Assembly (NCBI GenBank): GCA_018303405.1
Contig: JAGVYD010000011.1
Coordinates: 15,257-79,256, forward strand
DNA from: Candidatus Woesearchaeota archaeon
GTDB taxonomy: Archaea; Nanobdellota; Nanobdellia; Woesearchaeales; JABMPP01
Reading direction: 5' to 3'
DNA length: 64,000 nucleotides
Made by a program: the position numbers and the translations under genes. Under the pieces are notes generated by a model that saw nothing but the letters and a program-made list of their open reading frames with translations, did no database searches and was not told the DNA's origin. How positions within the stretch are numbered: position 1 is the first letter of the stretch; the number at the start of each line of letters is the position of its first letter. Of this stretch, positions 5,465 through 62,229 are shown in pieces.

Positions 5465-5478
5465 AAAAAATAATATTC

Positions 5479-7637: not shown

Positions 7638-8106
7638 CCTTGTCGCCTTTCTTGGCGCCAGGCACATAGAATGAACCTACAACCCTTGTTTTTCCCCTGC
7701 CGTATTTCACAATGAAGAAATCATCCCTTTTCTCGATTATCTCTGCCGTGTGCACCTTGCACAGTTCCCTGAAAACATTTGGCGCGATTGCATAAGAGCC
7801 ATCGCCCGCTTCAATCATGGCGTTGTGCCTGTTGTGAAAATATTCTCTGATTACCTTCAAATCCCAATGGCTCCTGATGCCCATGCTTTCAGCCACGCGA
7901 TCCATCCTTTCAAATGCCTTCCTATATGTGCTTTCCAGAAGCTTCCTTCCAACTTTTCTGTTGTGCATGGCAGCGTTTTCCAGCGCCCTGAATGTCCTGT
8001 CATTTATCTCCCCGCGCTGCTTAATAACATAGGTGCACGGGAATGCGTACCTAAGAAAATAGCTTTCAACTGACACTGCCTTGGGCAGCTTAGCAGGCTT
8101 TGCCAC
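7597..8106 (-). CDS. Hypothetical protein adjacent to hypC
   Basis: 169 aa with no recognised domain. The C-terminal segment GDKVRIHHGFAVEM is reminiscent of the HypC OB-fold tail (GDYVLVHVGFAIE), but there is no MC N-terminus. Convergent overlap of 41 nt with the EamA gene. Confidence 0.3.
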   Translation of the reverse strand: MAKPAKLPKAVSVESYFLRYAFPCTYVIKQRGEINDRTFRALENAAMHNRKVGRKLLESTYRKAFERMDRVAESMGIRSHWDLKVIREYFHNRHNAMIEAGDGSYAIAPNVFRELCKVHTAEIIEKRDDFFIVKYGRGKTRVVGSFYVPGAKKGDKVRIHHGFAVEMAE

Positions 8107-8302
8107 TATGGATCATCTCCAGCCATCTCTCAGCTGCTTTTTTGTTGACTTTCTCAATCACGATTCGGCCCTGCACAATAACATAATCGCCTGGCCTGTA
8201 TTTCCTCTCCACAATTTTTGCCTTTCTTTTTTCAGTGTCGTAATCTATGGTTGCCATGTCTTTGCTGATCTTCAGGATTTTTCCAGGATAGGCCAGGCAC
8301 AT
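8090..8302 (-). CDS. hypC: Hydrogenase maturation factor HypC
   Basis: 70 aa starting MCLAYPGKI, the MCLAIP signature of HypC/HupF. Confidence 0.85.
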   Translation of the reverse strand: MCLAYPGKILKISKDMATIDYDTEKRKAKIVERKYRPGDYVIVQGRIVIEKVNKKAAERWLEMIHSGKAC

Positions 8303-8655
8303 CAGTTTTTCACCTTTTTTGCTTTTTTTACGGTTACCTGCCTTATCCTTATATCCCCACCTTCATAAAGTTTTGGGACTTTTCCGCATTTTTCGCAGAC
8401 ATAAAGGCAGAATTCATGCCCCCTTTCAAGCACTTTTGGATGGCCTGAATGGCCACAGTTGCATTTTGCCTTTGCTTTTATCTCCTTTATCTTTATTTTC
8501 CACTTTGTAAGCGTTTCAAGAATTTCCCTTAGTTCATGGTCATGTATCGGGCCAAGTTCTCCAACGTCGAGGATGATTGACTCTATTTCCCCACCTTTTC
8601 CGGCTTTTTTCTGCGCATCATCAATTATTCTTCTTGCAATGACAGTTTCGTGCAT
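8302..8655 (-). CDS. hypA: Hydrogenase nickel-incorporation protein HypA
   Basis: 117 aa starting MHE. Two CxxC pairs (CNCGH...CEKCG) forming the HypA zinc site. Confidence 0.85.
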   Translation of the reverse strand: MHETVIARRIIDDAQKKAGKGGEIESIILDVGELGPIHDHELREILETLTKWKIKIKEIKAKAKCNCGHSGHPKVLERGHEFCLYVCEKCGKVPKLYEGGDIRIRQVTVKKAKKVKN

Positions 8656-8671
8656 TTTCTTTTGCCTCTTT

Positions 8672-8950
8672 TTATATTATCTCTTTACTTGATTTTAATT
8701 GTAACGTGCCAACGATGAGAATGAGTTGTTGCCAATTTCTAAGCTCTTTTGGAATGACAAGTTCTTTTCCAATTGTTGATTTATCAATCTTATTTAATAA
8801 GCCTAATCTTCTAGTTTCTAAATCTAGCTCTTTTTCTGTTTTAGCTTTCCTAACTCTATCTGCAGTTTCTATCCTGCCATGAGAAACCTTTGTTTTTGTA
8901 ACAGAGTCACTTAGGTTTTTGTCTTTGATGTATTTCTGTTCATTTGACAT
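8672..8950 (-). CDS. Small hypothetical protein (possible AbrB/MazE-like DNA-binding fold)
   Basis: 92 aa encoded in a markedly AT-rich stretch. The C-terminal VIPKELRNW weakly resembles the swapped-hairpin IPKEIR motif. Weak call. Confidence 0.2.
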   Translation of the reverse strand: MSNEQKYIKDKNLSDSVTKTKVSHGRIETADRVRKAKTEKELDLETRRLGLLNKIDKSTIGKELVIPKELRNWQQLILIVGTLQLKSSKEII

Positions 8951-9143
8951 GATTCACTCTCCACTGGACATGTCGTCGTGAAGTATTTAAAGCTTTTCTC
9001 TCTATATTTGTCAAAAAGAGAACACGCAAAACTGCCAAATTAATCTTTTCGATTTCATCGAAAATCTTTTACGCAGTTTCGCTATACATTCCTTTTTTTC
9101 AGGCTCCAAAGTTTAAAAAAATGAAAACTTTGGAGGTGTAAAA

Positions 9144-10058
9144 GTGCCAACAACAAACGAAATAGTGAAAATTTATACAAAAATACACTCTATTAGGGCA
9201 GTTTCCCGGCAGACTCACATTTCGAGGACAAAAATTAGGAAAATTCTTATTGAAACCGGAATCAGAATTCCAGATAGCAGAACGGCCCAACTGGCTGTAG
9301 GTTATATCCAAGAAAAGAAGAAGTTCTGCCTTTCTCCTCAAGAAAAAGCCTATTTATACGGGTTAGTGATGGGTGATCTAACTCCTATCCTGAAATCTAA
9401 ATATACTTTAAAACTTATCACAACTTCTACTCATAAAACTTTCATGGAAATGCTATGTAAAACTTTTAAAAAATACGGGATAACTAATCATAAGGAAACT
9501 AAAAATAAAAATACGTTTAGGTTTCAAAGTCACATTGATCTGGAAAGTTTTTTATTTCTATTGGATACAAAAAACAAATGTATGCCTACTTGGATAAAGG
9601 CTCATAACTTTTACAATTTCCTTGGCGGGTTTATAGACTCTGATGGCAGTATTATTGTTAGGAAATCTGGCAATTACTTTCAATATGTTATTAGATTTTT
9701 TAGTCAGAATCTGGACCTTCTGCTTGAAATAAAAAGTAAACTGAAATCCATTGGATATCATCTTTCCATACACAAAAGTCATTCTAAGGGCCACATTAGT
9801 TATCATAAAAACGTAAAGTTTCAATACAACAGGAATTATTATACTCTTGAAACCTACAAAAAGGAAGAAACTTTAGATTTACTGGGAAAGATACCTATTA
9901 GACACCCCGAAAAAATTGCAAAAAAGAACCTGATATTTGATATTTATCGTCGAAAACTTGTATTGTGGAAAGATATTGAAAATCAAGTCAAAGAATTAAG
10001 AGAAAAAATAAGACAATCAGTAATACAAAGAAAGGCACTATCATCCCCAATATGTTAA
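9144..10058 (+). CDS. Free-standing LAGLIDADG homing endonuclease with N-terminal HTH domain
   Basis: 304 aa with two LAGLIDADG motifs (LYGLVMGDLTP and FLGGFIDSDGSIIV). N-terminal about 45 aa looks like a helix-turn-helix. Encoded in AT-rich DNA. The 3' end overlaps the 3' end of rtcB by 71 nt on the opposite strand. Confidence 0.8.
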   Translation: MPTTNEIVKIYTKIHSIRAVSRQTHISRTKIRKILIETGIRIPDSRTAQLAVGYIQEKKKFCLSPQEKAYLYGLVMGDLTPILKSKYTLKLITTSTHKTFMEMLCKTFKKYGITNHKETKNKNTFRFQSHIDLESFLFLLDTKNKCMPTWIKAHNFYNFLGGFIDSDGSIIVRKSGNYFQYVIRFFSQNLDLLLEIKSKLKSIGYHLSIHKSHSKGHISYHKNVKFQYNRNYYTLETYKKEETLDLLGKIPIRHPEKIAKKNLIFDIYRRKLVLWKDIENQVKELREKIRQSVIQRKALSSPIC

Positions 10059-27994: not shown

Positions 27995-28078
27995 GCGGAG
28001 GTGCCGGAGCGGCCAAACGGGATGGGCTTAGGACCCATTGGCTTAGTGCCTACGCAGGTTCGAATCCTGTCCTCCGCA
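27995..28078 (+). tRNA. tRNA-Leu (anticodon UAG), type II with long variable arm
   Basis: Folds manually: acceptor GCGGAGG/CCTCCGC, 3-bp D-stem, anticodon stem ATGGG/CCCAT with loop CTTAGGA (anticodon TAG), about 15-nt variable arm, T-loop TTCGAAT, discriminator A. Confidence 0.8.
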
Positions 28079-28167
28079 TTCTTAATTCTCAGTTTATAGA
28101 CGAGAAAATCCAAAAGTCAGACATTAATTGACAAAGCTTTTTAAACTTTGAAGTAGTTACTTTACCG

Positions 28168-28626
28168 ATGAACCAACCTAAGTTTATTTACAAATTTGAA
28201 AATCATTTCTCACCAGTTCATCTTATCGATAGTCATGAAACTAAAATGAGATTTGACATATTTGGTTTAAGTGGCATCTGGGATTCAACGGAGTTAAGTA
28301 ACTTTATTATGGTTGATACGCCAGGACAATCAAGTCATATTGAACCTGCAAGTTTAGAATTGATTGGTTCGGTTTACCTTGGCCCAAGAAAATTTATTAT
28401 GAAACGAGCGGCCGAATATGGTAATCGGGAAGTTGTTCAGATTTCAGATTATCGTGAGATTTTATCAGAACTTATCAATGAAACATCAGAAATAGCTACA
28501 AATGGCAATTATGCTTATTACAGTTTAATGACCACTACTCAAAGATTAGGTAAAACATCAGAACAGGAAAGTCAGTTTCTTTTGCACCCTACAGCGCAGT
28601 TATATATTCAAAAAACCAATTCTTGA
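28168..28626 (+). CDS. Hypothetical protein (152 aa) in AT-rich island
   Basis: ORF in about 33 percent GC DNA immediately 3' of tRNA-Leu. No recognisable motif. Confidence 0.3.
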   Translation: MNQPKFIYKFENHFSPVHLIDSHETKMRFDIFGLSGIWDSTELSNFIMVDTPGQSSHIEPASLELIGSVYLGPRKFIMKRAAEYGNREVVQISDYREILSELINETSEIATNGNYAYYSLMTTTQRLGKTSEQESQFLLHPTAQLYIQKTNS

Positions 28627-28689
28627 TTTCATGGAGATTTCAATTCCCTTTCAGAAACATTTAAATATCAAGCTGCCTAAGAGAATAAT

Positions 28690-28827
28690 ATGTCAGACAC
28701 AATAACAATACCAAGAACTGAATATGACAATCTCAGGAAGAAGGCCGAAATAGCAGATGATATTATCTTGCAGCTTGAAAGCAGTTTAAGAGACGCTGAA
28801 GCCGGAAGAGTAAAAAGAGTTGCCTAA
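28690..28827 (+). CDS. Small ORF (45 aa), possible antitoxin-like protein
   Basis: MSDTITIPRTEYDNLRKKAEIADD... Short, charged, helical-looking peptide. Convergent with the RelE-like gene and overlapping it by 4 nt. Weak call. Confidence 0.2.
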   Translation: MSDTITIPRTEYDNLRKKAEIADDIILQLESSLRDAEAGRVKRVA

Positions 28828-29207
28828 ACAGATTCAATTATTTTTCTGTATCTATCTTTATTGGCAATTATATGATTAATAATCTGCTGCTGTTCCTTCT
28901 TTGAGCCGAAAGAGACAAGCAAGATTTTGGAGATATCTGTGTATATCAGGTAATACATTCTTTTGTTTCCAAATTTCTTCTCCCTAAACCAGTCAAACCT
29001 GAGAGGCTTCCCAGTTTTTGGATTTTCAATCAGCTGCTGCTTGATTTTATCAACCCACTCCTGCTCAGCAGTTTCCATGGCTTCATATAGCTTGGAGAAA
29101 GTCTCTGTTTCGAATATCTGATGTGCCATAAGCAAATTGTGTAAAAGGAGGTTTATTAAATTATTCATTCGCCTCTCCTTGGAGGTTACCAAACATTTTA
29201 TACTCAC
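28824..29207 (-). CDS. RelE/ParE-family toxin-like protein
   Basis: C-terminal GKPLRFDWFREKKFGNKRMYYLIYTDISKILLVSFGSKKE matches the RelE/ParE core (conserved R...R...Y, beta strand LIY). A likely real start is the internal Met near 29129 (MAHQIFETETF...). No cognate antitoxin on the same strand upstream. Confidence 0.45.
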   Translation of the reverse strand: MSIKCLVTSKERRMNNLINLLLHNLLMAHQIFETETFSKLYEAMETAEQEWVDKIKQQLIENPKTGKPLRFDWFREKKFGNKRMYYLIYTDISKILLVSFGSKKEQQQIINHIIANKDRYRKIIESV

Positions 29208-29265
29208 TATCTACTGAGTTAAGCATAAAGCTAACACAAAGTGTGTGCATAAATGAAACAACGAG

Positions 29266-29439
29266 TTAGGGATTGCTCCTAACTTTGATTTTGTTTCTTA
29301 ATGGATGACTGAAAGGTAGAACATCATAAGGGGGTAGCATATCTTGAGCATCAAATCCACATTCAGGACAAATCATGTATGCCTTTTCATCGTCTGCTTT
29401 TTGTTCCCAGCCACACTTTGGGCAAAATTGATTTGTCAT
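29266..29439 (-). CDS. Small zinc-ribbon protein (57 aa)
   Basis: Hand-translated: MTNQFCPKCGWEQKADDEKAYMICPECGFDAQ... Two CPxCG pairs. Below the ORF-track length cut-off. Confidence 0.3.
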   Translation of the reverse strand: MTNQFCPKCGWEQKADDEKAYMICPECGFDAQDMLPPYDVLPFSHPLRNKIKVRSNP

Positions 29440-29638
29440 ATGCCGTAATAAAAAGATGTCTTATTTAACTTTTTGCCCAAAAAGTCCTCATCCTGCCCAA
29501 ATAGTCGGACTTTTTATAGATTTCTTGGGCAAAGCCTATTTTTAGATAAAAAGTAACTGTATACCAACAGTGTACGCAATTGAAGAAAACAGTCAATGAC
29601 AAGCTAACCATAAACCTATACGACTTGGATTGATGCAT

Positions 29639-30274
29639 TCAATCCTTCTGACGCTTATGCTCTTCGCCCTTTTCTTCCTTTTGTTTCCTTTTCCTTGATT
29701 TTCTCCTGTAAATCAGATAGCCAATGCCTGCGAGAATGGCAATCAGGATGACCCAGTCCCATGGGATTGGGTGGGTTGTAAAGAATGAAAGCCCTTCAGG
29801 CGGGACCAGCTCTTTTTCATACGGGGCTTCGACCACGCTTGGCGTTGCCGCGAAATCAAGCGTTGCATAAAGCTTCTGCATCTCTGACTTTCCCTCAGCC
29901 AGTCTGCTTATCGGGCCGTACATTGTAAGAAGATAAGTGTGGTCCTTGTACGGGTAGCGGCTGAAAATGAAAAAGACTTCTTTGTTCGCAATGACTGCCT
30001 CCTCAATATCGCCAATCTTTCCAGTGCTTTCAATCTTGCCTTCGATCGACAGGGCGAATTCCTCAGTCCCAACCAATTGGCTCTGGCTGGCCTTTATATC
30101 CAGATACAAGTCATTTCCTTTCACAAATTGCTGGCTCGCGCTGTTCTGCTCATAGATATCCCAGCCCGGCAGCTCAAAAATAAGGTACGCCTGCTGGTAG
30201 GCTGAGGCAGGCGCCATCAGCATAACCATTGCAATTATCAGGATGTGTATTTTGCAACCCATTTTCCCACCCAC
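29639..30274 (-). CDS. Secreted, C-terminally membrane-anchored hypothetical protein
   Basis: 211 aa. Signal peptide (ILIIAMVMLMAPASA), extracellular domain, C-terminal TM helix (WVILIAILAGIGYLIY) and a lysine-rich tail. Confidence 0.4.
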   Translation of the reverse strand: MGGKMGCKIHILIIAMVMLMAPASAYQQAYLIFELPGWDIYEQNSASQQFVKGNDLYLDIKASQSQLVGTEEFALSIEGKIESTGKIGDIEEAVIANKEVFFIFSRYPYKDHTYLLTMYGPISRLAEGKSEMQKLYATLDFAATPSVVEAPYEKELVPPEGLSFFTTHPIPWDWVILIAILAGIGYLIYRRKSRKRKQKEEKGEEHKRQKD

Positions 30275-46842: not shown

Positions 46843-47982
46843 TTGGATACCCAAGCAAGCGCAAATTTTATATTGTTGGCAAAACAAGGTTTCTGGATGC
46901 TTTATATTGAAAAAAAATTCGAGTACGAGTTTGGGAAACGAAAACTGCTCATAACCTTTGACAGTGGCATGTACGGATTCATCTCCGGCATTATTGAACC
47001 AACCAACTTTCTTGAGTTCCTTCACGCTGCCTGGAGGAAATGCAAAGCTGCTGGCATGTTCCCCGCAATGGAATTTATGATAAGACGGAAAAGAAAAACG
47101 TTTATTGGCCGCGGCTCAAAAGCCGACATGAAGCCCAGTGAAACGTTCCGCGGAATTTACAGGATTTACCTTTACCCTGAGTCCATTTTTCCACTTGAGC
47201 AAAATCCAGGATTTGCATGGGCAGTTTCAAGCACACTCAACAAGTTGAGCCGATTCAAGGCCATTGGCGCATTGCTAAGGAAAACAGTGGAGCATGAAAT
47301 TGCGCATGTGAAGCATTATGCGACGGGCAAGGCCGTGAGGGCAAGAATTCTTGTGCTGGACCGGCAACGGGAAAAAATGAACAAATTCCACGAGCATCTA
47401 AATCAGCTTGCTTACAGTGGCACGGGGATATCTTGGAAGCAATCTGGATTGGCTGATGAATTCATATCCTTGAGGATGGATTTGTTTTTCTTCATTGAAA
47501 ATTTTCAAGCCGAGGGCATTGCCATGTATGCAGAGCTCTGCGTTGAAAAAAGCTCATTTGACATGTACTCAGAAGTGAAAAAGACATATCGCAAAGGCAA
47601 AAGATACGTTAAGTCCCTGAAGCTTCGCTTTGAGCCAACCAGTTCCCTTACAGAAGACAGGAAATTCATTCAGGAAATCAAGGAAGGCAGGTCAAGGAGC
47701 GCCCCCTACAGAATAGGCCTGCACATGGTTCTGGCAGTCATGCAGCATTTCCGCCTGGACATCGACAGAATAATGCAGCTTTCACCAATTGCATTCATAA
47801 AACACTATGAAACTGCTGCCATGGCATTGGATTTGAAGCCATTGGTCAGCGTCAATGGCGGGGCCGGGATTTTTGATTATGCAGAGACTCTCAGGAAAAT
47901 CATGAAATATTACAAGTCACAGGGCCTGGATGATGTTTATGAGGTATACAGGAAATGGAAACTGGATGACGGATTATCCTGA
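46843..47982 (+). CDS. Hypothetical protein with HExxH motif (possible Zn-dependent peptidase)
   Basis: 379 aa containing VEHEIAHVKHY, an HExxH signature. No other recognisable features. Confidence 0.3.
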   Translation: MDTQASANFILLAKQGFWMLYIEKKFEYEFGKRKLLITFDSGMYGFISGIIEPTNFLEFLHAAWRKCKAAGMFPAMEFMIRRKRKTFIGRGSKADMKPSETFRGIYRIYLYPESIFPLEQNPGFAWAVSSTLNKLSRFKAIGALLRKTVEHEIAHVKHYATGKAVRARILVLDRQREKMNKFHEHLNQLAYSGTGISWKQSGLADEFISLRMDLFFFIENFQAEGIAMYAELCVEKSSFDMYSEVKKTYRKGKRYVKSLKLRFEPTSSLTEDRKFIQEIKEGRSRSAPYRIGLHMVLAVMQHFRLDIDRIMQLSPIAFIKHYETAAMALDLKPLVSVNGGAGIFDYAETLRKIMKYYKSQGLDDVYEVYRKWKLDDGLS

Positions 47983-48026: not shown

Positions 48027-50144
48027 ATGTGCGGCCTTATTGGGATATTCAACATTGAGAATGCAGCTGGCCTGGCAGCCAAAGCCCTGGAAGCCATAAG
48101 GAACAGGGGCACAGAGGCCTATGGCATTGCAACAGAGTCATGGATTGAAGTGAAAAAAAGGCCCGAGGACCTTGTCCCTATCAAATCCAGGAACGCAGTT
48201 GCCCACTGCCTGCATTCTGTTGTCTCCTATCTCCCCCAGCCACTGAAAGGCAAGGGAATTCTCATTGCCAATTGCGAGATTTACAATTGGAGGGAACTTT
48301 CGGCAAGGCACAGGATAAATGCCCAAAACGATGCAGACCTGCTCCTCCAGATGCTTGACAAGCTTGGCGTCGCCAAAACTGTGCCAGAGATTGACGGGGT
48401 ATTTGCATTCGCATACTGGCGGAATGGCAAGGTCATCCTGGCGCGGGACATTATAGGTGAAAAGCCATTGTGGTACCATTTTGGGGATTCATTCTCATTT
48501 TGCTCTGAGAAAAAGGCCCTGGAAAGCCTTGGCTTCTTGGCTTGCTTTGAGCTGAACCCAAGGCAAATCCTGACATATGACATCGGGCAAAACAGAATCT
48601 CATTTGCACAGCGAAAATTCTTTTCAATCAAGCCTGAGTCAAGGCTCAAGCCTGGCCGGATTGAAAAAGAAGTCTGCGGGCTGCTGATTAATTCTGTGGC
48701 CAAGAGGCTGCCTGACAAGAAATTCGGGCTGCTTTTTTCAGGCGGGGTTGATTCCTCGGCAATTGCGCAAATCCTGAAAAGCCTTGGCATGGACTTTACA
48801 TGCTATCTGGCAGTCCTGGACGAGCCGGGCCTGAAAACAGGAGATGACCTTGCGTCAGCAGAATATGCTGCCAAGAAAATTGGGCTCAGGCTAAAGGTCA
48901 GGCGCCTTTCACTTGATGATGTGCAAAAATACCTTAAAAAAGTTGTTCCGCTGATTGAGGACACCAATGTGACAAAAGCCGGAGTGGCTGTAACTTTTTT
49001 CGCAGCCTGTGAAATGGCAAAGGCAGATGGCATCAAGGTCATTTTTTCCGGATTAGGAAGCGAGGAAATATTTGCAGGCTATGACAGGCACAGGAAAAGC
49101 CAGAATGTGAACAATGAATGCCTTTCCGGGCTCCTCAAAATGTATGAACGGGACACTTACAGGGATGATGTCATAACCATGGCCAACAGCCTTGAGCTGA
49201 GGCTGCCGTTCCTTGACAAAAGGCTGGTTGAATATTCATTGAAGATTCCCGGCCATCTTAAGCTGAATGAGCAGGCGAACAAGATAATTCTGAGAAGAGC
49301 GATGATCAGCCTGGGAATGCCGCAGGAAATCGCTTCCAGGAAAAAAAGGGCTGCCCAGTACGGCAGCAGGGTTGATTCCGCAATTGAAAAGCTGGCAAGG
49401 AGAAACAGAATAAAGACAAAATCAGAATACCTCCGGCAATTCTATCCACAGAAAAACCTCAGGCTGGGAGTCCTGTTTTCCTCGGGCAAGGACAGCTGCT
49501 TTGCAATGCATACAATGCAGAAGCAAAATTATGGAATTTCCTGCCTTATTACAATGAAAAGCGAAAACAAGGATTCATACATGTTCCACACGCCGAATGT
49601 GCACATGGCAAGAATGCAGGCAGAGGCAATTGGGCTTCCACTGGTCGAGACGGTGACCTATGGAGAAAAAGAGGCTGAGCTTGAGGACCTTGAAAAAGCG
49701 CTTAAAATTGCGCAAAAAAACCATGCCATAGAAGGGGTTGTCACAGGCGCATTGTTCTCCAATTACCAGCGGGAAAGGATTGAGAGGGTGGCTGATTCGC
49801 TGGGGCTGAAGATTTTTTCGCCATTATGGCACATGGACCAGGAACTGGAAATGGGCGTCCTGCTGGATGCAGGATTCAAGTTCATATTCAGCAGCGTCGC
49901 CGCATTTGGCCTGGACAAGTCTTGGCTCGGCAGGGAAATAGGCCATAAGGACATCAAGAGGCTCGTGGAACTGAACAAAAGGACAGGCCTGAACATCGCC
50001 GGAGAAGGGGGAGAATTCGAGTCACTTGTCCTGGACGGCCCGATGTTTCGCAAGGCAATCCAGGTAACCGATTCTGAAATAATTGTGGAAGGGGAGCACA
50101 ATGCCAGATTTATCGTGAAGGATGCTGTGCTGGCTGAGAAATAG
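48027..50144 (+). CDS. Asparagine synthetase (glutamine-hydrolysing)-like protein fused to a Dph6/MJ0570-type ATP pyrophosphatase (diphthine-ammonia ligase-like) domain
   Basis: 705 aa. Starts MCGLIG (Ntn class-II glutamine amidotransferase). AsnB PP-loop LLFSGGVDSSAIA at about residue 235. C-terminal about 220 aa has a second PP-loop (VLFSSGKDSCFAM) and blocks (YMFHTPNVH, GALFSNYQRERIERVA, GEGGEFESLVLDGP) closely matching archaeal Dph6 (diphthamide synthase) proteins. Confidence 0.75.
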   Translation: MCGLIGIFNIENAAGLAAKALEAIRNRGTEAYGIATESWIEVKKRPEDLVPIKSRNAVAHCLHSVVSYLPQPLKGKGILIANCEIYNWRELSARHRINAQNDADLLLQMLDKLGVAKTVPEIDGVFAFAYWRNGKVILARDIIGEKPLWYHFGDSFSFCSEKKALESLGFLACFELNPRQILTYDIGQNRISFAQRKFFSIKPESRLKPGRIEKEVCGLLINSVAKRLPDKKFGLLFSGGVDSSAIAQILKSLGMDFTCYLAVLDEPGLKTGDDLASAEYAAKKIGLRLKVRRLSLDDVQKYLKKVVPLIEDTNVTKAGVAVTFFAACEMAKADGIKVIFSGLGSEEIFAGYDRHRKSQNVNNECLSGLLKMYERDTYRDDVITMANSLELRLPFLDKRLVEYSLKIPGHLKLNEQANKIILRRAMISLGMPQEIASRKKRAAQYGSRVDSAIEKLARRNRIKTKSEYLRQFYPQKNLRLGVLFSSGKDSCFAMHTMQKQNYGISCLITMKSENKDSYMFHTPNVHMARMQAEAIGLPLVETVTYGEKEAELEDLEKALKIAQKNHAIEGVVTGALFSNYQRERIERVADSLGLKIFSPLWHMDQELEMGVLLDAGFKFIFSSVAAFGLDKSWLGREIGHKDIKRLVELNKRTGLNIAGEGGEFESLVLDGPMFRKAIQVTDSEIIVEGEHNARFIVKDAVLAEK

Positions 50145-50868
50145 CATGGCCTGGCCTTTCAGGCTGGTCAAACATGAACATCCTCTGAAGGGCAAAAACA
50201 AGCTGCTCGCTGGTGAGGCTGCGGGGCAAGGTCTTTGCGGCAAGGCTGGCTATTGCGGGTGACAAATCCTGGAGCGCATGGATTTTAATATCCACTTTGC
50301 CTCCATATTTGGGGTCCGGGAAATTCATTTCTGCTGTAACGCCATATGGCAAAATCAATTCGAAATCAGCATCGCCAAAATACCCGTTCTTAGACGGGTC
50401 CCATCCCATCTCAGCTATCTTGTCAAGCGGATGGTGGCTTTTTACCTTTCGCCGCCAGTATCCGCCTTCATCCTCAAGCACAGTGTAGCTCAGGCCAGGC
50501 CTTCTGTCCCTGTCATACTTTTCCATGGCGTCTCCAAGCCACTGGTGCTCGTAAATCAGTCCAACGCTCATCTCTGAGGGCTCCAGGCTGCGCACCTCAT
50601 TTGCAAATGCAAGCAACTGCTGCAGCATTCCCTGCTTTTCCCTATTTTCAGCTTCCCATTCTAAAATAACCAGTTTTTGGCCAGGCCCTCTCCAGGCATT
50701 AATCAGGACTGCCTGGTCCCCGGGAGAATCTGCATATCTTCCGCTGGAAATCCTGACATCTTCGGCACTGCCTGGCCTGCTGTTGTAGAAGGTCATAAGA
50801 TAAATCCCATTGTCGATATCCCTTTCCCACCTGGCAATTTCATTGCTATGGTCAGTCACTATTGGCAT
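50110..50868 (-). CDS. Hypothetical protein (252 aa)
   Basis: No recognisable motifs. Overlaps the 3' end of the AsnB-Dph6 gene by 35 nt, convergent. Confidence 0.3.
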   Translation of the reverse strand: MPIVTDHSNEIARWERDIDNGIYLMTFYNSRPGSAEDVRISSGRYADSPGDQAVLINAWRGPGQKLVILEWEAENREKQGMLQQLLAFANEVRSLEPSEMSVGLIYEHQWLGDAMEKYDRDRRPGLSYTVLEDEGGYWRRKVKSHHPLDKIAEMGWDPSKNGYFGDADFELILPYGVTAEMNFPDPKYGGKVDIKIHALQDLSPAIASLAAKTLPRSLTSEQLVFALQRMFMFDQPERPGHAISQPAQHPSR

Positions 50869-50933: not shown

Positions 50934-52418
50934 TCAGCAAACATTCGTACCAATGCCCAGCGCCTTTCTTCCCAGGATAATCAGCTCATTGGATTTCTCC
51001 TCTGATTTTGAGTCTGCTATTATTCTTACGACGCCAGGCTCTGTCTTTGAGTCCCTGAACCATATCCATGAAGAATCATCGGCCCACACTTTTATTCCGC
51101 CTGTCTCGTCGCCGGTTTCTGTAACCTTGTAGCCCTTGAAATATTCCCTTATTGAATGTTTCAGGTCCTGCATCCGCTCCTTTGACAGCAGGGCCTTTGT
51201 CTGCAGGGTATAGTATTGCGGCAACTTTTCAATTATCTTTGACAGGCTTTTCTTTCCTGTTGCCATTATGCCCAATAGCATGGCCATGCCAAGAATGCCG
51301 TCCCTGGATGTCGACGGCGGCACAATCCCGCCTGAGGAGCTTCCCTCCCCTCCGAGGCAGGCCTTTCTTTTTTTCATCTCTTCCATAACATTGGCCTCTC
51401 CAACCTCGACCTCATAAATCCTGCCTTTGTGCTTTTTGACGATTTCGCCGACAACCTGGCTTGTCGCGTCATTTGTCACAACAACCCTGTTCTTTGCGCC
51501 CGGCAGCATGTAATCAGCCAAAATTGCAAGAAGGTAGTGCCCGGAAATGACCTTCCCTATATTTTCCCCGAATGGGAGCACAAATTCAGCCCTGTCCGCA
51601 TCGCAGTCAAAGCCAATGCCAAAATCCGCCTTTTCCTCCCTCACAATTTTTCCCATGTACGAAAGCGAATTTTCATTTGGCTCGATTCTCCTGTGGAACT
51701 CGCCTGGCTTTGCAGCCACAAGCCTGCCAGTGATTTTCAGGTCAGAGAGGACATCCGCTATGATTTTCCAGGAGCTTCCGCCATTGGGGTCAACAACAAG
51801 CCTGAATCCCGCCGACCTTATCCTTTTTACCATCTCCTTGCCAAGCGTGCCGAGAACAAATTCCCTGTATTTCTGCCCAATGTCCATGCTTTTGTTGACG
51901 AAATTGCAATTTCCGGCTTTTTTTGCCGGAACTTTTGCCTTTTTTGCTTTTTTGATAATCGCATGCATGGATTCAGCTTTCAGCGCAGCGCCATTGCTGC
52001 CCAGGAATTTCCAGCCATTGAACTCAGGCTCATTGTGCGAGGCAGTAATTATGATTCCCCCGTCAGCCTTGTACTTCCGCACGGCCAGCTGTATCATGGG
52101 CGTTGTGGCAATCTCCACATCAATTATTTCCTTTGCTGTTTTGCAGCAAACCTCAATCATTGCTTTTTTCAGCGCAGGCCCTGATGCCCTCGTATCCATG
52201 CCCACAACAATCCGCGGAGCGTGCTTTGACTGCTTTTTCAGCCAGCTTGCATATGCATGGGCATATCTCCTTGCAATTTCCTCTGTCAAGGCAGCGCCAT
52301 AAATCCCCCTTATCCCTGAGAATGATTCAACCAGATAGCTCATGGGGCTAATCCTTGTTTCGGGCTTTATATAATTTATCCTCTCCATTGTCTTGATCTG
52401 CCTTATTACTGGCATCAC
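50934..52418 (-). CDS. Phosphoglucosamine/phosphomannomutase family protein (second copy)
   Basis: TASHNEPEFNGWKF phosphoserine loop, FDCDADRAEF metal-binding motif and FSGIRGIYG N-terminal motif of alpha-D-phosphohexomutases. The true start is probably an internal Met at about 52340. Confidence 0.75.
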   Translation of the reverse strand: MMPVIRQIKTMERINYIKPETRISPMSYLVESFSGIRGIYGAALTEEIARRYAHAYASWLKKQSKHAPRIVVGMDTRASGPALKKAMIEVCCKTAKEIIDVEIATTPMIQLAVRKYKADGGIIITASHNEPEFNGWKFLGSNGAALKAESMHAIIKKAKKAKVPAKKAGNCNFVNKSMDIGQKYREFVLGTLGKEMVKRIRSAGFRLVVDPNGGSSWKIIADVLSDLKITGRLVAAKPGEFHRRIEPNENSLSYMGKIVREEKADFGIGFDCDADRAEFVLPFGENIGKVISGHYLLAILADYMLPGAKNRVVVTNDATSQVVGEIVKKHKGRIYEVEVGEANVMEEMKKRKACLGGEGSSSGGIVPPSTSRDGILGMAMLLGIMATGKKSLSKIIEKLPQYYTLQTKALLSKERMQDLKHSIREYFKGYKVTETGDETGGIKVWADDSSWIWFRDSKTEPGVVRIIADSKSEEKSNELIILGRKALGIGTNVC

Positions 52419-54047: not shown

Positions 54048-56585
54048 TTATATCCAAAGCCACGCCAGAAGATACAACCCAAGAATTGCAAGTGCAGAAA
54101 CCATGGCAGAAACCTTTTCAAGTGCATTCAGCTCAACCTTCAAAATTATCTCATTCCCTGCCCTGGCTTTCATCAATATCAGGTACTCTGTGGATGACAG
54201 CACAGGAATCTCTTCCCCTCCCATGTACGCATGCCACCTCGGGAAATAATGTTCCTTAAACACAACCCAGTCCCCATCCTTAAAGTTGCCGGTGATTACA
54301 ATTTCGTCCTGCTTAATGCGCTTCCATGGCAATGGTTCATATGCAAAGCTTTCCGGCATTTGCTGATAGCCTCCTATGTCATACCACCCCTCTTTTGGCA
54401 GCAGGCTCACAGCCACAAAGCCGCCTTCCAGTTTTCTTAAGTCTTCAAGCATTGCCTCAGGCGCCACAATGACTTTTTCAGAATAAAAACTGTAGTTCAT
54501 CTTAAGTATGACATCACAAAGGTATTCCTTGTTCTGGTAAATCGGATAGGCCTGGCCCTGCATAAGAACCTGGACAACAGACCTGCCAAGCGGCTCGCAG
54601 GCATTGACAAAGACGTACTGGTAGCCTCCTGCCCGGAGATAATTCCCGAACTCTATGCTTGTCAAATTTTGCAGGGCAGGGGTAAACCCCCATGAATGGG
54701 AGCTGTGAATTTTCGTGTAAACTGTTTTTGACTCATCGAACTGGTTGAATTCGTACCTGGCAGTATACCTGTCTGTCAGTATGTGCACAGCTGGGTCAAA
54801 GGCGTTTGAGAATATTGCATAAGTAATCATCCTGCCATCCATCGACAGCTTGCTGATAAAATCCAGCTCAGATGAATACCTTTCACCATTTATGACACTT
54901 TCCTTATGTATCCCCGTGAAATTCTCAATCTCAAATGGCACAGTGGCAATGATTCCAATGAGCAGGATGGCCGCAAGCAAAATCCTCAGCCATTTTGATT
55001 CCTCATTGATTACAATGGCAATGACTGCTGCAAAAAATACCAGCTGGTGGAACATCAGTATCCTGTCCCCATACTCAATATTGCCAACTGTCGGGAACAG
55101 GTTTGCAAATGATGAGACAACCATGGCAATCACGAAGGTTGCCGCCAGGATGCGCGCCATTGTGAAGGAGCCTTTTTTCCAGCGCAGCAATGCCCAGAGA
55201 ATCGCAAGGGCGCCAAGGGCTGACAGGAATGGCCCCATCTTCTTGTCATCATTTCTCAGCGGGTCAGGGTGCCTGAATGAGAACGGCGTGTCGTCGACGA
55301 AAAAATGCCTGAAATATTCCACTATTTCATGGGTGTCAAACCTGACGCTCTGCCCCGCTCCCCTGTTGAAATCACGATAATACAGATTTGGCGCAAGATA
55401 GAACAGCAGGACCATGAAAGCAATCACAACCAAAAAAATTTTGATGCGCTCTTGTTTTATATGCCTGGCAAGCTCCTTTCTTCGTGACCATAAGCTGTCT
55501 TTCTGCGTCTGCAGCAGCAGCAAAATTGTCCCGGAAAAAATAATAATGCCGAGCGTATTCGCAGGGTGCGTGACTATCATAAGTGCGCCATAAAGAAACA
55601 TGAGCCCGAACTCATCAAGGCCCCTTGGATTATCCAATGCCATTGACAAGATAAGAAGGCCGATTGGCACAGAAAACATCATCTTATAGCTTTCCAGGAA
55701 CTGCAGGGACACGAAATTAATGCCAACAGCAGCCGAGGCAAGGCCGAAAATGTATGGCGTGGCAAAAGATTCCTTTTTTGTGCAGCTTGCAATGATGAGG
55801 TAAGTGCCCAGCATGATCATGAAAAGGATGAACAGCTGGAATGAATTCCAGAAAAGCACTGGCTCAATCCCGCCAAGGAACATGTACACCAGCCCGATAT
55901 GGCTGTAAGATGCAGGGGAATCTGCCAAATACGCAAACTCCCCATTTGCCATGTAAGGCTGGTAATGCGGAAATTCGCCAAACTTGCCAATGTCCTTCGG
56001 GATAACATAAAATTTCGAATACAGCCAGGTCCCGTTCGAATTGAACAGGTTTCCATCTTCAAGTATGTAGTGGCCGACTGTGAAAATTGCCAGGAAACAT
56101 ATTATCAGGGCCTTTGCTTCCTTCCCATCAACCTTTATGAGGGTTGAATATTTTTTCTGGAAAATGGCCTTGCTAAGCAGCAATGCAGCTGGAAAGAAAA
56201 ATGTGGCCAGGATAGTCCAGGATGTCAGGGGGATGCGCGCAAAAATTGTAGTAATGTAAACCAGCAGGGTCGCGAACACGGCCAAGCCCCATCCCATCAA
56301 GTACCTCTTTATGAATCCAGACTTATTCAGCAAAAGCCCAATGGCAGAAAAGGGAAGGTAGATGGCAAAAAATACAAAGAAGCTGAACACTGCTGAGCCC
56401 GCTGCCAGAACATAAAGGAAGTTGCTGATTTCCCTGTCGAGCCTGTTCCTCAAAAAAAATAATACAACCCAAGCTATTGTGGCAGGGATCAATACCGTCT
56501 TCAGAACAAAAGACAAAACAACAATATATATGGCCAATAGCCACAATGTTGCATGCTCTGTTGCCCGAATCTTGATAACTTTCAT
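54048..56585 (-). CDS. Large polytopic membrane protein (845 aa), candidate glycosyl/oligosaccharyl-transferase
   Basis: About 15 TM helices over 520 aa, then an about 300-aa C-terminal soluble domain. Lies in a cluster with two SDR epimerases and a DPM1-like GT2. No canonical STT3 WWDYG motif found. Confidence 0.45.
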   Translation of the reverse strand: MKVIKIRATEHATLWLLAIYIVVLSFVLKTVLIPATIAWVVLFFLRNRLDREISNFLYVLAAGSAVFSFFVFFAIYLPFSAIGLLLNKSGFIKRYLMGWGLAVFATLLVYITTIFARIPLTSWTILATFFFPAALLLSKAIFQKKYSTLIKVDGKEAKALIICFLAIFTVGHYILEDGNLFNSNGTWLYSKFYVIPKDIGKFGEFPHYQPYMANGEFAYLADSPASYSHIGLVYMFLGGIEPVLFWNSFQLFILFMIMLGTYLIIASCTKKESFATPYIFGLASAAVGINFVSLQFLESYKMMFSVPIGLLILSMALDNPRGLDEFGLMFLYGALMIVTHPANTLGIIIFSGTILLLLQTQKDSLWSRRKELARHIKQERIKIFLVVIAFMVLLFYLAPNLYYRDFNRGAGQSVRFDTHEIVEYFRHFFVDDTPFSFRHPDPLRNDDKKMGPFLSALGALAILWALLRWKKGSFTMARILAATFVIAMVVSSFANLFPTVGNIEYGDRILMFHQLVFFAAVIAIVINEESKWLRILLAAILLIGIIATVPFEIENFTGIHKESVINGERYSSELDFISKLSMDGRMITYAIFSNAFDPAVHILTDRYTARYEFNQFDESKTVYTKIHSSHSWGFTPALQNLTSIEFGNYLRAGGYQYVFVNACEPLGRSVVQVLMQGQAYPIYQNKEYLCDVILKMNYSFYSEKVIVAPEAMLEDLRKLEGGFVAVSLLPKEGWYDIGGYQQMPESFAYEPLPWKRIKQDEIVITGNFKDGDWVVFKEHYFPRWHAYMGGEEIPVLSSTEYLILMKARAGNEIILKVELNALEKVSAMVSALAILGLYLLAWLWI

Positions 56586-59964: not shown

Positions 59965-60014
59965 TTGGCACGGAAGGCAGGGAGACGCTCGCTTTGCTCG
60001 GTCTCCCGAACTGC
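59965..60014 (+). repeat. 50-bp hairpin repeat, copy 2
   Basis: Perfect 50/50 identity with 59837-59886. A third, diverged copy (GCACGGAAGcCgGGGAGAC...GTCTCCCGAACcGC) lies on the minus strand at 1202-1250. Confidence 0.8.
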
Positions 60015-60123
60015 GACTATCGGCAATAGGGACGGGAATCAATAGCGATTATAACTTTAAAATTACATCGCGTCGGGGAATTTTATGTTCCCCCCGTTTT
60101 TACCAGATTTTTGTTAAAAATCT

Positions 60124-60253
60124 GCCGCGGTCGCTTAGCCCGGTATAGCGCTGGATTGCTAGATACTGTATAACTAGTGTCTTAGAAACCTACTATACCA
60201 TGCAGACATCCAGTGTCCGCAAGGACTCGGGAGTTCAAATCTCCCCCGCGGCG
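60124..60253 (+). tRNA. tRNA-Ser (anticodon GCU) with 46-nt intron at canonical 37/38 position
   Basis: Manual fold: acceptor GCCGCGG/CCGCGGC, D-arm, anticodon stem CTGGA/TCCAG with loop TTGCTA-[intron 60162-60207]-A, long variable arm (GTCC GCAA GGAC), T-arm GGGAG TTCAAAT CTCCC, discriminator G. Oligo-T tract follows. Confidence 0.8.
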
Positions 60254-60290
60254 CTTTTCTTATTTTATAAGGAAGTGAAACGCCAAAAAA

Positions 60291-60560
60291 TTAGTCCTTT
60301 CCCATAAATTTACCAATATACTCCATTATTTTCTCTTTCTTTTCAATATTTATTGAAACATGCTTTCCATAGCCTGTCTTTTTCAAGTACAAAATCCCCT
60401 CTTTAATCAATTCTTCAGAGATTTCCTTAACTCTCCCTTTCAAATCGGGAGGAAAGCTCTTTGCAAGATTCTCAAAGGCAGTGTGGCTATGTTCAAACTT
60501 CCCTTTGCGCGTAAGCTTGTGCAAAATCTTTCCTTTAATCTGTGAATCATTCCACGTCAT
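60291..60560 (-). CDS. Small hypothetical protein (possible winged-helix)
   Basis: 89 aa in AT-rich DNA just 3' of tRNA-Ser. Weak wH-like pattern (GILYLKKTGYGKHVSIN). Confidence 0.25.
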   Translation of the reverse strand: MTWNDSQIKGKILHKLTRKGKFEHSHTAFENLAKSFPPDLKGRVKEISEELIKEGILYLKKTGYGKHVSINIEKKEKIMEYIGKFMGKD

Positions 60561-60632
60561 AAGTCCACCAGAATAGACTTTGAAAGGTTAAATTTATATA
60601 CTTTTCTGTTTATTCAATATCAAGGTAAAAAA

Positions 60633-60962
60633 ATGGAAGAAAAATCGTTATTGCTTAATTTGACGGGAGACTTGCCTTTATTTAGAATAATTGATTTTCT
60701 GCTTGAAAACAAAGGGATGGACTACAGCAAGACAGACATCGCCAAGGGTGCAGGGATTTCAAGGGCATCTTTGTTCAATTACTGGATAGAATTGGAAAAA
60801 CACAGGCTGATAAAAACAACAAGAAGCTTTGGCAAGACAAAGCTGTATACCCTAAACGTTAGCAATCCAATTACACAAAGGATTATTGAGCTTGAGAAAA
60901 CATTGATAAGCGAAGCCATGAACAAAGCTGTGAAGAAAAAAGAAATTTTGGTTGAAAATTGA
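60633..60962 (+). CDS. Winged helix-turn-helix transcriptional regulator, putative
   Basis: 109 aa. DIAKGAGISRASLFNYWIELEKHRLIKTTRSFGKTKLYTL is a typical HTH recognition helix plus wing. Confidence 0.5.
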   Translation: MEEKSLLLNLTGDLPLFRIIDFLLENKGMDYSKTDIAKGAGISRASLFNYWIELEKHRLIKTTRSFGKTKLYTLNVSNPITQRIIELEKTLISEAMNKAVKKKEILVEN

Positions 60963-60996
60963 GTTATTTTTCTGAAACCTTTATTTTTATATATCT

Positions 60997-61587
60997 CTAT
61001 TCTTGTTTGTCAATTTCCCATTCAATTTCTGGATAATGCCTTGGCTTAATTTTCTTGATATTTTTTAATACATACTTTTTGAGTTCTTCCCCATTTTCCT
61101 TTGAATAAGCCCGTACGTTTCCATAAAAGAAATAACTTCCTTTTTGACTCTTGACAATAAGTGCACTGATATAATCATTTACCTTCAGCAAGTTTGGAAA
61201 ATCAATTGTTTTAATTAAGTACTTTTTACTATCTATTACATTCTTAATTAGATAATCTTTTCTGTTAATATGCACAACTTGAAAAAGCGAGTCATTGTAT
61301 TCAACAAAGTTTCTTATAATCTTTCGGTCATTTTTTGTAAAGAAGTCAAGAGGGAATAGCAGTGCATATTCCATTGGCGTTGCGCCCTTAATTTTTCTTT
61401 GAAGCAGAAAATATGATAAGAATCCACTATAATAGGTTGTATCATCTTTTGCTGACTGTGCCTCTTGTGTTGCCTGAAACTCTTTGTTCGCTTTTTGTAA
61501 CTCTTTAGGGTGCAGATTGTTTATGAAACCAAGCACTTTTCTAATCACTTTTGTTTCTGGCTGTATTTTACCCCTTGTCATAATCAA
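60997..61587 (-). CDS. Hypothetical protein (196 aa), third gene of AT-rich cassette
   Basis: About 30 percent GC. Overlaps the upstream gene by 20 nt. No motif recognised. Confidence 0.3.
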   Translation of the reverse strand: MIMTRGKIQPETKVIRKVLGFINNLHPKELQKANKEFQATQEAQSAKDDTTYYSGFLSYFLLQRKIKGATPMEYALLFPLDFFTKNDRKIIRNFVEYNDSLFQVVHINRKDYLIKNVIDSKKYLIKTIDFPNLLKVNDYISALIVKSQKGSYFFYGNVRAYSKENGEELKKYVLKNIKKIKPRHYPEIEWEIDKQE

Positions 61588-61951
61588 AGCCCATTTTCTC
61601 CAAATCTATTCTCAAATACTTTTCCTGCAGGTCATAAACAGTATTATACAAATAATCATTATCCCATTTTGTAAAAATCCCGATATTTTTATGAATACTT
61701 TCTATTAGTTCCATTGGTTTGAGTGATGGCATTGTCATAAAGAAAAAGAAGAAAATTTTATCGTATATCTTTATTGTCACATCAATAAGCTTATATTTTA
61801 CAGAAATAGCTTTTAAAGCATTTCTTAGCCCTTCTTTTTCCTGTATTGTTTCATCATTCATAGTTTTATGACAGTAGAAATATCCTCCTTGGTGCACTGA
61901 GTGGCTGAATTTGTATAATTTTCTTCCTCTTTTATCAACTTCAATCTTCAT
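61568..61951 (-). CDS. Hypothetical protein (127 aa), second gene of AT-rich cassette
   Basis: Translationally coupled to flanking genes (4-nt and 20-nt overlaps). No motif recognised. Confidence 0.3.
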   Translation of the reverse strand: MKIEVDKRGRKLYKFSHSVHQGGYFYCHKTMNDETIQEKEGLRNALKAISVKYKLIDVTIKIYDKIFFFFFMTMPSLKPMELIESIHKNIGIFTKWDNDYLYNTVYDLQEKYLRIDLEKMGFDYDKG

Positions 61952-62229
61952 CTTACATCCAGCCCTTTCATTTTCTTCAGCTTGCTCTGGGGGTTAAATG
62001 TCCAGAGCACTTTATCATCGGAGAAGACTATTTTTCCGCTATATGCCAGATAATCCAATATTGCAATCACTGTCTGATGCATCACCTGCTTTGGCAGCTT
62101 TCTTTTCAATTCAGCAACCGATATCAGACTATCAGCTTTTTGCAGAGTATCCTCTACCATAAGAACTGTATTTAAGGTGGGGCTTCTTTGTTCTGCATAG
62201 TTCCTTGTCTTTAAGGTTATTGTTTGCAT
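61948..62229 (-). CDS. Hypothetical protein (93 aa), first gene of AT-rich cassette, possible wH domain
   Basis: ISVAELKRKLPKQVMHQTVIAILDYLAYSGKIV resembles a winged-helix recognition helix. Weak call. Confidence 0.3.
   Translation of the reverse strand: MQTITLKTRNYAEQRSPTLNTVLMVEDTLQKADSLISVAELKRKLPKQVMHQTVIAILDYLAYSGKIVFSDDKVLWTFNPQSKLKKMKGLDVR

Follow-up and report, generated by a model that had tools for sequence, protein, structure and literature searches.

A 705-residue protein encoded in a 64,000-nucleotide (nt) stretch of Candidatus Woesearchaeota DNA (contig JAGVYD010000011.1; hereafter the window) is read here as the diphthamide synthetase (Dph6) of a DPANN archaeon. It takes a composite form in which a class-II glutamine amidotransferase-like domain (G) and an AsnB-type PP-loop ATP-pyrophosphatase domain (S) precede the Dph6 domain (D), and S would contribute something beyond the glutaminase. 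The probability of this reading is put at about 0.6. The architecture itself and the idea that glutamine supplies its ammonia have been known since 2012, and the family is routinely annotated. What is added here is that the signature residues of D are complete, that the AsnB-like half appears to be a distinct subfamily, and that S is linked to Dph6 also in forms without G. For the final step of diphthamide synthesis, little is yet understood of the nitrogen source and of the need for accessory domains, and this fusion family is a natural system in which to probe whether amidation of a protein-bound carboxylate can be coupled to a glutaminase.

Domain layout of the G-S-D protein

The original prediction, made from the letters of the window, described one uninterrupted open reading frame (ORF) with three parts, and the ORF listing and translation bear this out. 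The product is identical to a protein (P0001) of archaeon GW2011_AR3, a DPANN archaeon. Every motif quoted in the prediction is found in the translation: MCGLIG (residues 1-6), SGGVDSS (238-244), SSGKDS (485-490), YMFHTPNVH (518-526), GALFSNYQRERIERVA (574-589) and GEGGEFESLVLDGP (659-672). Pfam supports the same division, with GATase_7 at residues 71-166 (4e-17; GATase_6 is also matched), Asn_synthase from residue 218 (2e-49) and Diphthami_syn_2 (PF01902) at residues 481-689 (1e-64; 218 bits against a cutoff of 23). The boundaries of the three domains are given in Table 1.

The AlphaFold2 model of the whole protein has a predicted local distance difference test (pLDDT) score of 91.8 and a predicted template modelling score (pTM) of 0.89, and the short linker between S and D is modelled with high confidence. 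G, S and D are predicted to behave together as one compact unit, because the model is confident, the linker is conserved and the fusion has been kept across DPANN archaea, Methanosarcinales, ANME-1 and Syntrophoarchaeum. A fold search of the PDB returned no solved structure spanning all three domains.

Distribution of the fusion

The identical 705-residue protein is recorded on 12 contigs from several sources. The 120 homologues listed are all about 700 residues long, align from end to end with 53-67% identity and contain the same domains; residue counts given below out of 120 refer to the alignment of these family members. A scan of one genome per GTDB species gave at least 572 relatives. The best 80 of these, on which all genome-locus counts below are based, encode the full-length fusion without exception, and split halves occur at none of the 80 loci. 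Their hosts comprise Woesearchaeota, Nanoarchaeota/Nanobdellota, Iainarchaeum, Altiarchaeota and Nanohaloarchaea, together with Methanolobus, Methanomethylovorans, Methanohalophilus, ANME-3, ANME-1/Methanophagales, Syntrophoarchaeum and some Halobacteria metagenome-assembled genomes. A full-length homologue is present in the cultured Methanolobus bombayensis DSM 7082 and in Methanolobus sp. ZRKC2 (on a 2.9-Mb contig), and the Methanolobus homologues align with the window protein over its full length at 53-54% identity.

Two ordinary neighbouring genes could in principle have been merged by a sequencing or assembly error. The observation that might favour this is a 246-residue cluster representative (P0152), which is 99% identical to the window protein over residues 1-167 and then diverges. 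The artefact is refuted because the identical protein is found on 12 contigs and full-length homologues occur in the genomes of GTDB species; these homologues are colinear, number in the hundreds and include those of cultured Methanolobus, and the inter-domain linker is conserved. An error of this kind is virtually out of the question. No frameshift or stop separates the halves, as the prediction had supposed, and the same fusion, which it had proposed to look for in related archaea, is widespread among them.

P0152 itself probably comes from another assembly in which this gene is frameshifted or truncated. Longer G-S-D variants also exist (P0140, 1005 residues; P0259, 899 residues), in which several hundred residues are added N-terminally or inserted. 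What looked like additional copies in the fusion cluster proved to be single-linkage artefacts, namely a DRG-type GTPase and PurF.

The Dph6 domain

The window protein scores 276.2 bits on the NCBIfam equivalog model TIGR03679 (Dph6_archaeal; cutoff 197.3), and D matches the stand-alone archaeal proteins PH1257 (9e-60) and PF0828 (2e-55). Foldseek superposes D on both (PF0828, PDB 3RK1; PH1257, PDB 2D13) with template modelling (TM) scores of 0.94-0.95 and a root-mean-square deviation of 1.4-1.6 Å over about 228 columns. With these proteins D shares the fold, about 40% identity, the PP-loop, the EGGExE188 motif and the predicted contacts to elongation factor 2 (EF-2). Unlike them, it forms the C-terminal third of a 705-residue protein and carries SSGKDS in place of SGGKDS.

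Residues were compared by aligning the 120 family members with PF0828 and PH1257. In the second PP-loop, S12, G14, K15, D16 and S17 are kept in 120/120, and the G13 position is Ser in 92/120 and Gly in 26/120. Nine further residues (S44, E78, Y103, Q104, E183, G184, G185, E186 and E188) are each kept in 120/120. They have been placed either at the modelled EF-2 interface or in the EGG(E/D)xE188 motif, which marks Dph6, the B12-salvage subfamily of DUF71 being marked instead by ENGE(F/Y)H (PMC3541065). The predicted EF-2-contact residues S44, Y45, E78, Y103, Q104 and A149 are all present in the window protein; across the family Y45 is Y or F, and A149 is kept in 113/120. Judged by these signatures and by its modelled fold, D is a bona fide Dph6-type domain and a Dph6 orthologue, which agrees with the Dph6-like C-terminal part of the original prediction.

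The complete genomes of Methanohalophilus mahii and Methanosalsum zhilinae, both carriers of the fusion, each contain one DUF71 homologue (Supplementary Table S1, PMC3541065), and the fused gene is therefore the sole Dph6 candidate there. The related suggestion, that genomes with the fusion be surveyed for the absence of a separate dph6, is addressed by these two species and, in part, by the 64-kb window, where a second copy of G, S or D is absent.

The AsnB-like half

The N-terminal half was aligned with Escherichia coli AsnB (translated from NC_000913), and the alignment was confirmed with hhalign. In G, the N-terminal nucleophile Cys1 (Cys2 of the window protein, codon 48030-48032) is kept in 118/120, Asn74 (window Asn82) and Glu76 each in 119/120, and Asp98 (window Asp102) in 120/120. 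In S, the SGGxDS loop, Asp279, Ser346, Gly347, Tyr357, Arg387 and Lys429 (E. coli AsnB numbering) are kept in 120/120, Asp384 in 116/120 and Lys449 in 119/120. Conservation of Cys1, Asn74 and Asp98 argues that G is under selection. The invariance of SGGxDS, Ser346, Gly347 and Lys429, with Lys449 nearly so, argues likewise that S is under selection for ATP chemistry.

Both substrate pockets differ from those of the canonical enzyme. Leucine occupies the positions of the glutamine-binding Arg49 and of the essential Glu348 (Table 1), the Lys376 position is Gly in 116/120, and the Asp351 position is Glu, a milder change, in 116/120. In human asparagine synthetase (ASNS), Arg-48 is part of a conserved glutamine-recognition network and binds the alpha-carboxylate of glutamine, and activity is abolished, even when ammonium is supplied, in the E364A and E364Q variants, which are altered at the position of E. 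coli Glu348 (PMC6748925). The window protein also falls below the cutoffs of the asparagine synthase models TIGR01536 (252.1 bits against 267.1) and NF006949 (194.8 bits against 499).

The overall fold remains that of the family. TM scores to the target for AsnB-like folds are 0.76-0.79, those against AsnB and ASNS (PDB 1CT9 and 6GQ3) being about 0.77-0.79, and the two-domain arrangement of an Ntn (N-terminal nucleophile) amidotransferase followed by a PP-loop domain is shared with them, as are Cys1, Asn74, Asp98, SGGxDS, Lys429 and Lys449. Apart from the substitutions and the lower TIGR01536 score, the half differs from AsnB in an insertion of about 16 residues in G (residues 41-56, nt 48147-48194) and in its shorter S, from which the last ~90 residues of E. 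coli AsnB are gone, the linker and D standing in their place. S further holds family-specific invariants beyond those for ATP binding, namely R354, H355, C365, Q444 and Y445.

Beta-lactam and carbapenam synthetases, which are likewise AsnB folds, are the next structural neighbours. Their Glu348 position is not Glu, and their PP-loop domain adenylates a different carboxylate. They have lost the Cys1 nucleophile, whereas the present family keeps it, and they are bacterial secondary-metabolite enzymes with no Dph6 partner.

Taken at the level of active-site residues, the half constitutes a distinct AsnB-derived subfamily in which the nucleophile and the ATP site are intact and both substrate pockets have apparently been rebuilt. 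It is probably not an asparagine synthetase, because Arg49 is replaced by Leu, Glu348 by Leu and Lys376 by Gly. The AsnB synthetase of the original prediction holds as far as the domain types and the PP-loop go, and fails in so far as an ordinary AsnB was meant. Three features of G might compensate for the loss of Arg49: the insertion, the family-invariant Arg179 (nt 48561-48563) in an ELNPR motif, or His63, which adjoins Leu62.

The wording finally adopted in the 2012 paper (PMC3541065) is that the fusion is bifunctional. A genuine glutamine-dependent asparagine synthetase would be joined to Dph6, and one glutaminase would feed ammonia to both PP-loops. The AsnB domain order and the intact first PP-loop are what such an enzyme would show, and some stand-alone relatives of the AsnB-like half do exceed the TIGR01536 cutoff (P0127 with 281 bits and P0275 with 273 bits, against 267). 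The loss of Glu348 in 115/120 members, at a position where human ASNS tolerates neither Ala nor Gln even when ammonium is supplied, speaks against it, as do the substitutions at Lys376 and Arg49 and the window protein's own score below that cutoff. In a neighbour-joining tree of S domains, a long branch also separates the whole subfamily from E. coli AsnB, and the gene pairs of S and dph6 that lack an amidotransferase, described below, are hard to explain by asparagine synthesis. A bifunctional enzyme is accordingly regarded as improbable.

S as a recurrent partner of Dph6, with or without G

Residues 1-470 were searched against 1.84 billion cluster representatives, with 575 matches at E <= 1e-30, and the best 150 of these were sorted by hidden Markov models (HMMs) of the modules. 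About 50 are G-S-D and about 75 are G-S without D, many of them ending 2-5 residues past S; about 20 consist of S only (260-310 residues), and one is S-D without G. The markers of the subfamily are common to all classes: Leu at Glu348, Gly at Lys376 and, where G is present, Leu at Arg49.

The S-only proteins form a large DPANN family, many members of which are encoded on contigs of 40-380 kb. In three of four genomic contexts of S-only genes (L086, L088 and L089), a separate dph6 of 220-229 residues lies directly after S on the same strand, and no gene for a glutamine amidotransferase (GAT) is found near these pairs. In L086 and L088 the end of S and the start of dph6 share the 4 bp ATGA. The fourth context (L087) has no dph6 nearby. 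Genes for an NAD synthase (NadE) and for CTP_transf_like proteins are close by in L088 and L089.

S-only proteins also served as seeds for a scan of metagenomes, whose loci, sorted with the same module HMMs, extend this picture. G-S-D is fused at 24 loci. S-D is fused at 4 loci with a GAT absent within up to 4 kb, S has a separate dph6 within 150 bp at 3 (one in D-S order, one divergent), and at 1 the dph6 is ~1 kb off. One G-S locus has a dph6 1.5 kb upstream. At 17 S loci, flanks of 1 kb or more contain no dph6, 2 G-S loci have no dph6, and at 28 loci the flanks are too short to judge. The dph6 partners of S genes carry EGGExE. Linkage of S to dph6 is found in 8 of 25 informative GAT-less metagenome cases and in 3 of 4 genome contexts, which for a single-copy gene is far above chance, though it is not universal. 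Part of this linkage could be inheritance from an ancestral fusion.

In the tree of S domains, GAT-containing forms make up a basal grade and GAT-less forms one derived clade, within which Dph6-fused, Dph6-adjacent and unlinked S genes interleave. The unlinked S-only genes were considered as a separate paralogous family; the tree, which has no support values, interleaves them with the Dph6-linked ones.

The conserved partnership appears to be that between S and Dph6, with the glutaminase optional, because S is also found in the absence of G, be it within one protein with Dph6 or encoded beside dph6. This bears on the ammonia channelling proposed in the original prediction. A simple scheme in which the GAT feeds Dph6 cannot be the whole story, because S still accompanies Dph6, in the same protein or as a neighbouring gene, in lineages whose GAT has been lost. 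Of the two functional readings that the prediction offered, a glutamine-dependent synthase and an AsnB paralogue recruited to EF-2 modification, both are compatible with the data, which favour the recruited paralogue.

The same forms weigh on the proposal that S is a catalytically dead scaffold whose only part is to carry an ammonia tunnel from G to D. Such a role would suit the hydrophobic Leu at the Glu348 position, at the end of the AsnB tunnel, and the placement of D where AsnB has its C-terminal part. An invariant PP-loop and invariant ATP-binding lysines are unexpected in a dead domain, however, and S stays with D where G is absent and there is nothing to channel. A dead scaffold is thus very improbable.

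Proposed mechanism and its alternatives

From its sequence signatures, D would adenylate the diphthine carboxylate on EF-2 and then amidate it. The most likely task of G is the hydrolysis of an amide donor. This donor is probably glutamine, bound non-canonically in a pocket that lacks the usual Arg; the ammonia released would be delivered through S towards D. S would in addition do something for Dph6 that is independent of the glutaminase, because it stays linked to Dph6 in lineages without G. Candidate roles are ATP-dependent coupling, activation or gating, the handling of EF-2 as substrate, or a second adenylation step.

A parallel is offered by yeast Dph6 (YLR143W), in which DUF71 is fused to two RidA/YjgF-like domains, likewise a covalent accessory module and one thought to be tied to nitrogen supply. 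The yeast module is RidA-like and C-terminal, whereas the one described here is AsnB-like and N-terminal. The yeast DUF71 domain is non-functional without its fused RidA-like domains, and the authors of that work raised the possibility that in archaea separate polypeptides share the Dph6 function (PMC3585130). By analogy, the yeast protein may serve as a precedent for an obligatory accessory module.

A more specific version of the mechanism is put forward tentatively, as a minority possibility. S would be a hitherto unrecognised and functionally required partner of Dph6. It would either act on EF-2 or diphthine in an ATP-dependent step of its own or gate Dph6, and would neither make asparagine nor serve only to pass on ammonia; the glutaminase would be an optional addition rebuilt for a non-canonical amide donor. 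If this is true, the diphthamide synthetase of these archaea is a two-PP-loop enzyme.

S and D could also work as independent catalysts, their fusion serving co-regulation or co-localisation. As throughout the AsnB family, G would then feed S, and S only, and D would use free ammonium, like stand-alone Dph6, with no channelling from G; S would amidate or ligate another carboxylate, possibly on EF-2 or on another translation component. Both PP-loops are invariant, S is unlinked to D at many loci, and its invariants R354, H355, C365, Q444 and Y445 suggest a defined substrate, all of which an independent catalyst would be expected to show; the beta-lactam and carbapenam synthetases are a model for AsnB-family enzymes that act on other carboxylates without Glu348. 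No candidate second substrate is known, however, and diphthine provides one carboxylate only. A GAT-less S would also need free ammonia or another nucleophile, and the high pTM and conserved linker suggest tight coupling. Two separate activities are considered unlikely.

Several points count against the favoured reading of a Dph6 assisted by S. The canonical glutamine-binding Arg is missing, and the use of glutamine is not assured. The tunnel from G through S to D is hypothetical. Of the 25 GAT-less S genes with adequate flanks, 17 have no nearby dph6, nor is one adjacent to the stand-alone G-S genes L082 and L085 in genomes, and S encoded apart from Dph6 might therefore have an unrelated function. 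The S-domain tree was built by neighbour-joining and has no support values. The sole-copy evidence comes from genomes other than that of GW2011_AR3, the window and the 80 genome loci show no operon link to dph2, dph5 or EF-2, and a literature search found no biochemical work on any member of the fusion family.

Relation to earlier work

An AsnB domain N-terminal to DUF71 was reported in "a few Archaea" by de Crécy-Lagard et al. (2012, Biol Direct 7:32, Fig. 2C; PMC3541065). The carriers named were M. mahii, M. zhilinae and "Ca. Nanosalinarum", and the glutaminase of the AsnB-DUF71 fusion was proposed as the source of ammonia. The window protein is a member of this published class, with the same order of class-II GAT, Asn_synthase PP-loop and DUF71/Dph6 in one archaeal polypeptide. 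By comparison with that account, the family found here is very large, and the 2012 paper contains neither the remodelled Arg49, Glu348 and Lys376 positions nor the GAT-less S-Dph6 forms. The original prediction knew of no characterisation of the architecture. It has in fact been in print since 2012 and is annotated by the Prokaryotic Genome Annotation Pipeline (PGAP); biochemical characterisation, by contrast, has never been reported.

In his published review of the 2012 paper, L. Aravind asked which PP-loop uses the ammonia and what the AsnB-like PP-loop catalyses (PMC3541065). A literature search found no later paper that answers him. The present data narrow the question, in that the AsnB-like domain is, by its active-site residues, apparently not an asparagine synthetase and stays with Dph6 without a glutaminase. 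Among Dph6 proteins, only that of yeast has been shown to amidate diphthine in vitro, and it did so with ammonium (cited in PMC3585130), and no report was found in the literature of the in-vitro reconstitution of an archaeal Dph6.

Current annotation reflects the dual character of the family. PGAP names many members diphthine--ammonia ligase, and the Joint Genome Institute names them asparagine synthase (glutamine-hydrolysing) or diphthine-ammonia ligase. Stand-alone members of the subfamily in DPANN archaea are called asparagine synthetase B or, in the case of PGAP and S-only proteins, asparagine synthase C-terminal domain-containing protein. To call them asparagine synthetases probably overstates the amino-acid biosynthetic capacity of these organisms.

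Genomic surroundings

The neighbours of the gene in the window are a Na+/H+ exchanger with a TrkA domain, a 379-residue ORF, a 252-residue ORF, a PGM/PMM-family mutase, a MiaB-like radical-SAM enzyme and an alanine dehydrogenase, none of which is related to diphthamide. When the window is taken together with the 80 genome loci, any one neighbour recurs at 14 of the 81 loci at most, and Pfam assigned unrelated functions to the genes flanking the Methanolobus bombayensis homologue. With no operon context, the functional inference therefore rests on the fusion and on the gene pairs of S and D.

Table 1. Coordinates of the G-S-D gene, its domains and motifs, and other features; positions are those of the window unless a locus (L number) is given
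Feature	Position	Strand	Details
Whole G-S-D ORF	48027..50144	+	705 residues, ATG start, stop codon 50142-50144, single ORF, no internal stop
Domain G, class-II (Ntn) glutamine-amidotransferase-like	48027..48626	+	residues ~1-200; Pfam, residue counts, hhalign
Leu62 at the position of glutamine-binding Arg49 (human Arg-48)	48210..48212	+	Leu in 119/120; motif GHCLHSV vs E. coli AHERLSI
Domain S, AsnB-type PP-loop ATP-pyrophosphatase	48639..49436	+	residues ~205-470; Pfam Asn_synthase, fold match to 1ct9 and 6gq3, hhalign
PP-loop 1, SGGVDSS	48738..48758	+	residues 238-244; S, G, G, D and S invariant (120/120)
Leu343 at the position of essential Glu348 (human Glu-364)	49053..49055	+	Leu in 115/120; motif SGLGSEE vs SGEGSDE
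S-D linker, short and conserved	49437..49460	+	residues 471-478, family consensus ~FYPxxNL; near-invariant columns, high AlphaFold2 pLDDT
Domain D, Dph6 / diphthine--ammonia ligase (DUF71, PF01902)	49461..50141	+	residues 479-705; Pfam, TIGR03679, PH1257/PF0828 matches, fold
PP-loop 2, SSGKDS	49479..49496	+	residues 485-490; canonical form SGGKDS
EGGEFE, Dph6-specific EGG(E/D)xE188 catalytic motif	50004..50021	+	residues 660-665
ORF without Pfam match	46843-47982	+	379 residues
ORF without Pfam match	50110-50868	-	252 residues
ORF without Pfam match	54048-56585	-	845 residues
S and dph6 gene pairs	L086 5001-6532; L088 5001-6538; L089 5001-6674		S genes of 281-292 residues
Loci with upstream DRG/Obg-type GTPase	L006, L017-L020, L023-L026, L028, L031, L032, L034, L035, L079

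The 252-residue ORF is convergent with the fusion gene and shares 35 nt with the 3' end of the latter, and the 379-residue ORF holds an HExxH-like string (HEIAH); tblastn with the products of these two ORFs gave no match in the fetched loci. In about 15 of the 80 genome loci, a DRG/Obg-type GTPase (365-366 residues) is encoded upstream of the fusion, on its strand and at a distance of 30 bp to 4 kb. This arrangement could reflect synteny within lineages, or it could hint weakly at a connection with translation. The PGM/PMM-family mutase gene adjoins an AsnB-like gene both in the window (50934-52418, minus strand) and in L082, a Woesearchaeota locus with the unfused G-S form (4628-5965, plus strand).

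Elsewhere in the window, Rfam reports a tRNA of 130 nt at 60124-60253 on the plus strand (43 bits, full model length), and the only tRNA found there by ARAGORN is a tRNA-Leu at 27995-28078. The extra length of the former suggests an intron-containing archaeal tRNA. Three islands of low GC content, at 8001-10000 (36%), 28001-30000 (39%) and 60001-62000 (34%), stand out from a background of ~46-49%, and two of the three coincide with tRNA genes, the 130-nt tRNA lying in the 34% stretch at 60-62 kb.

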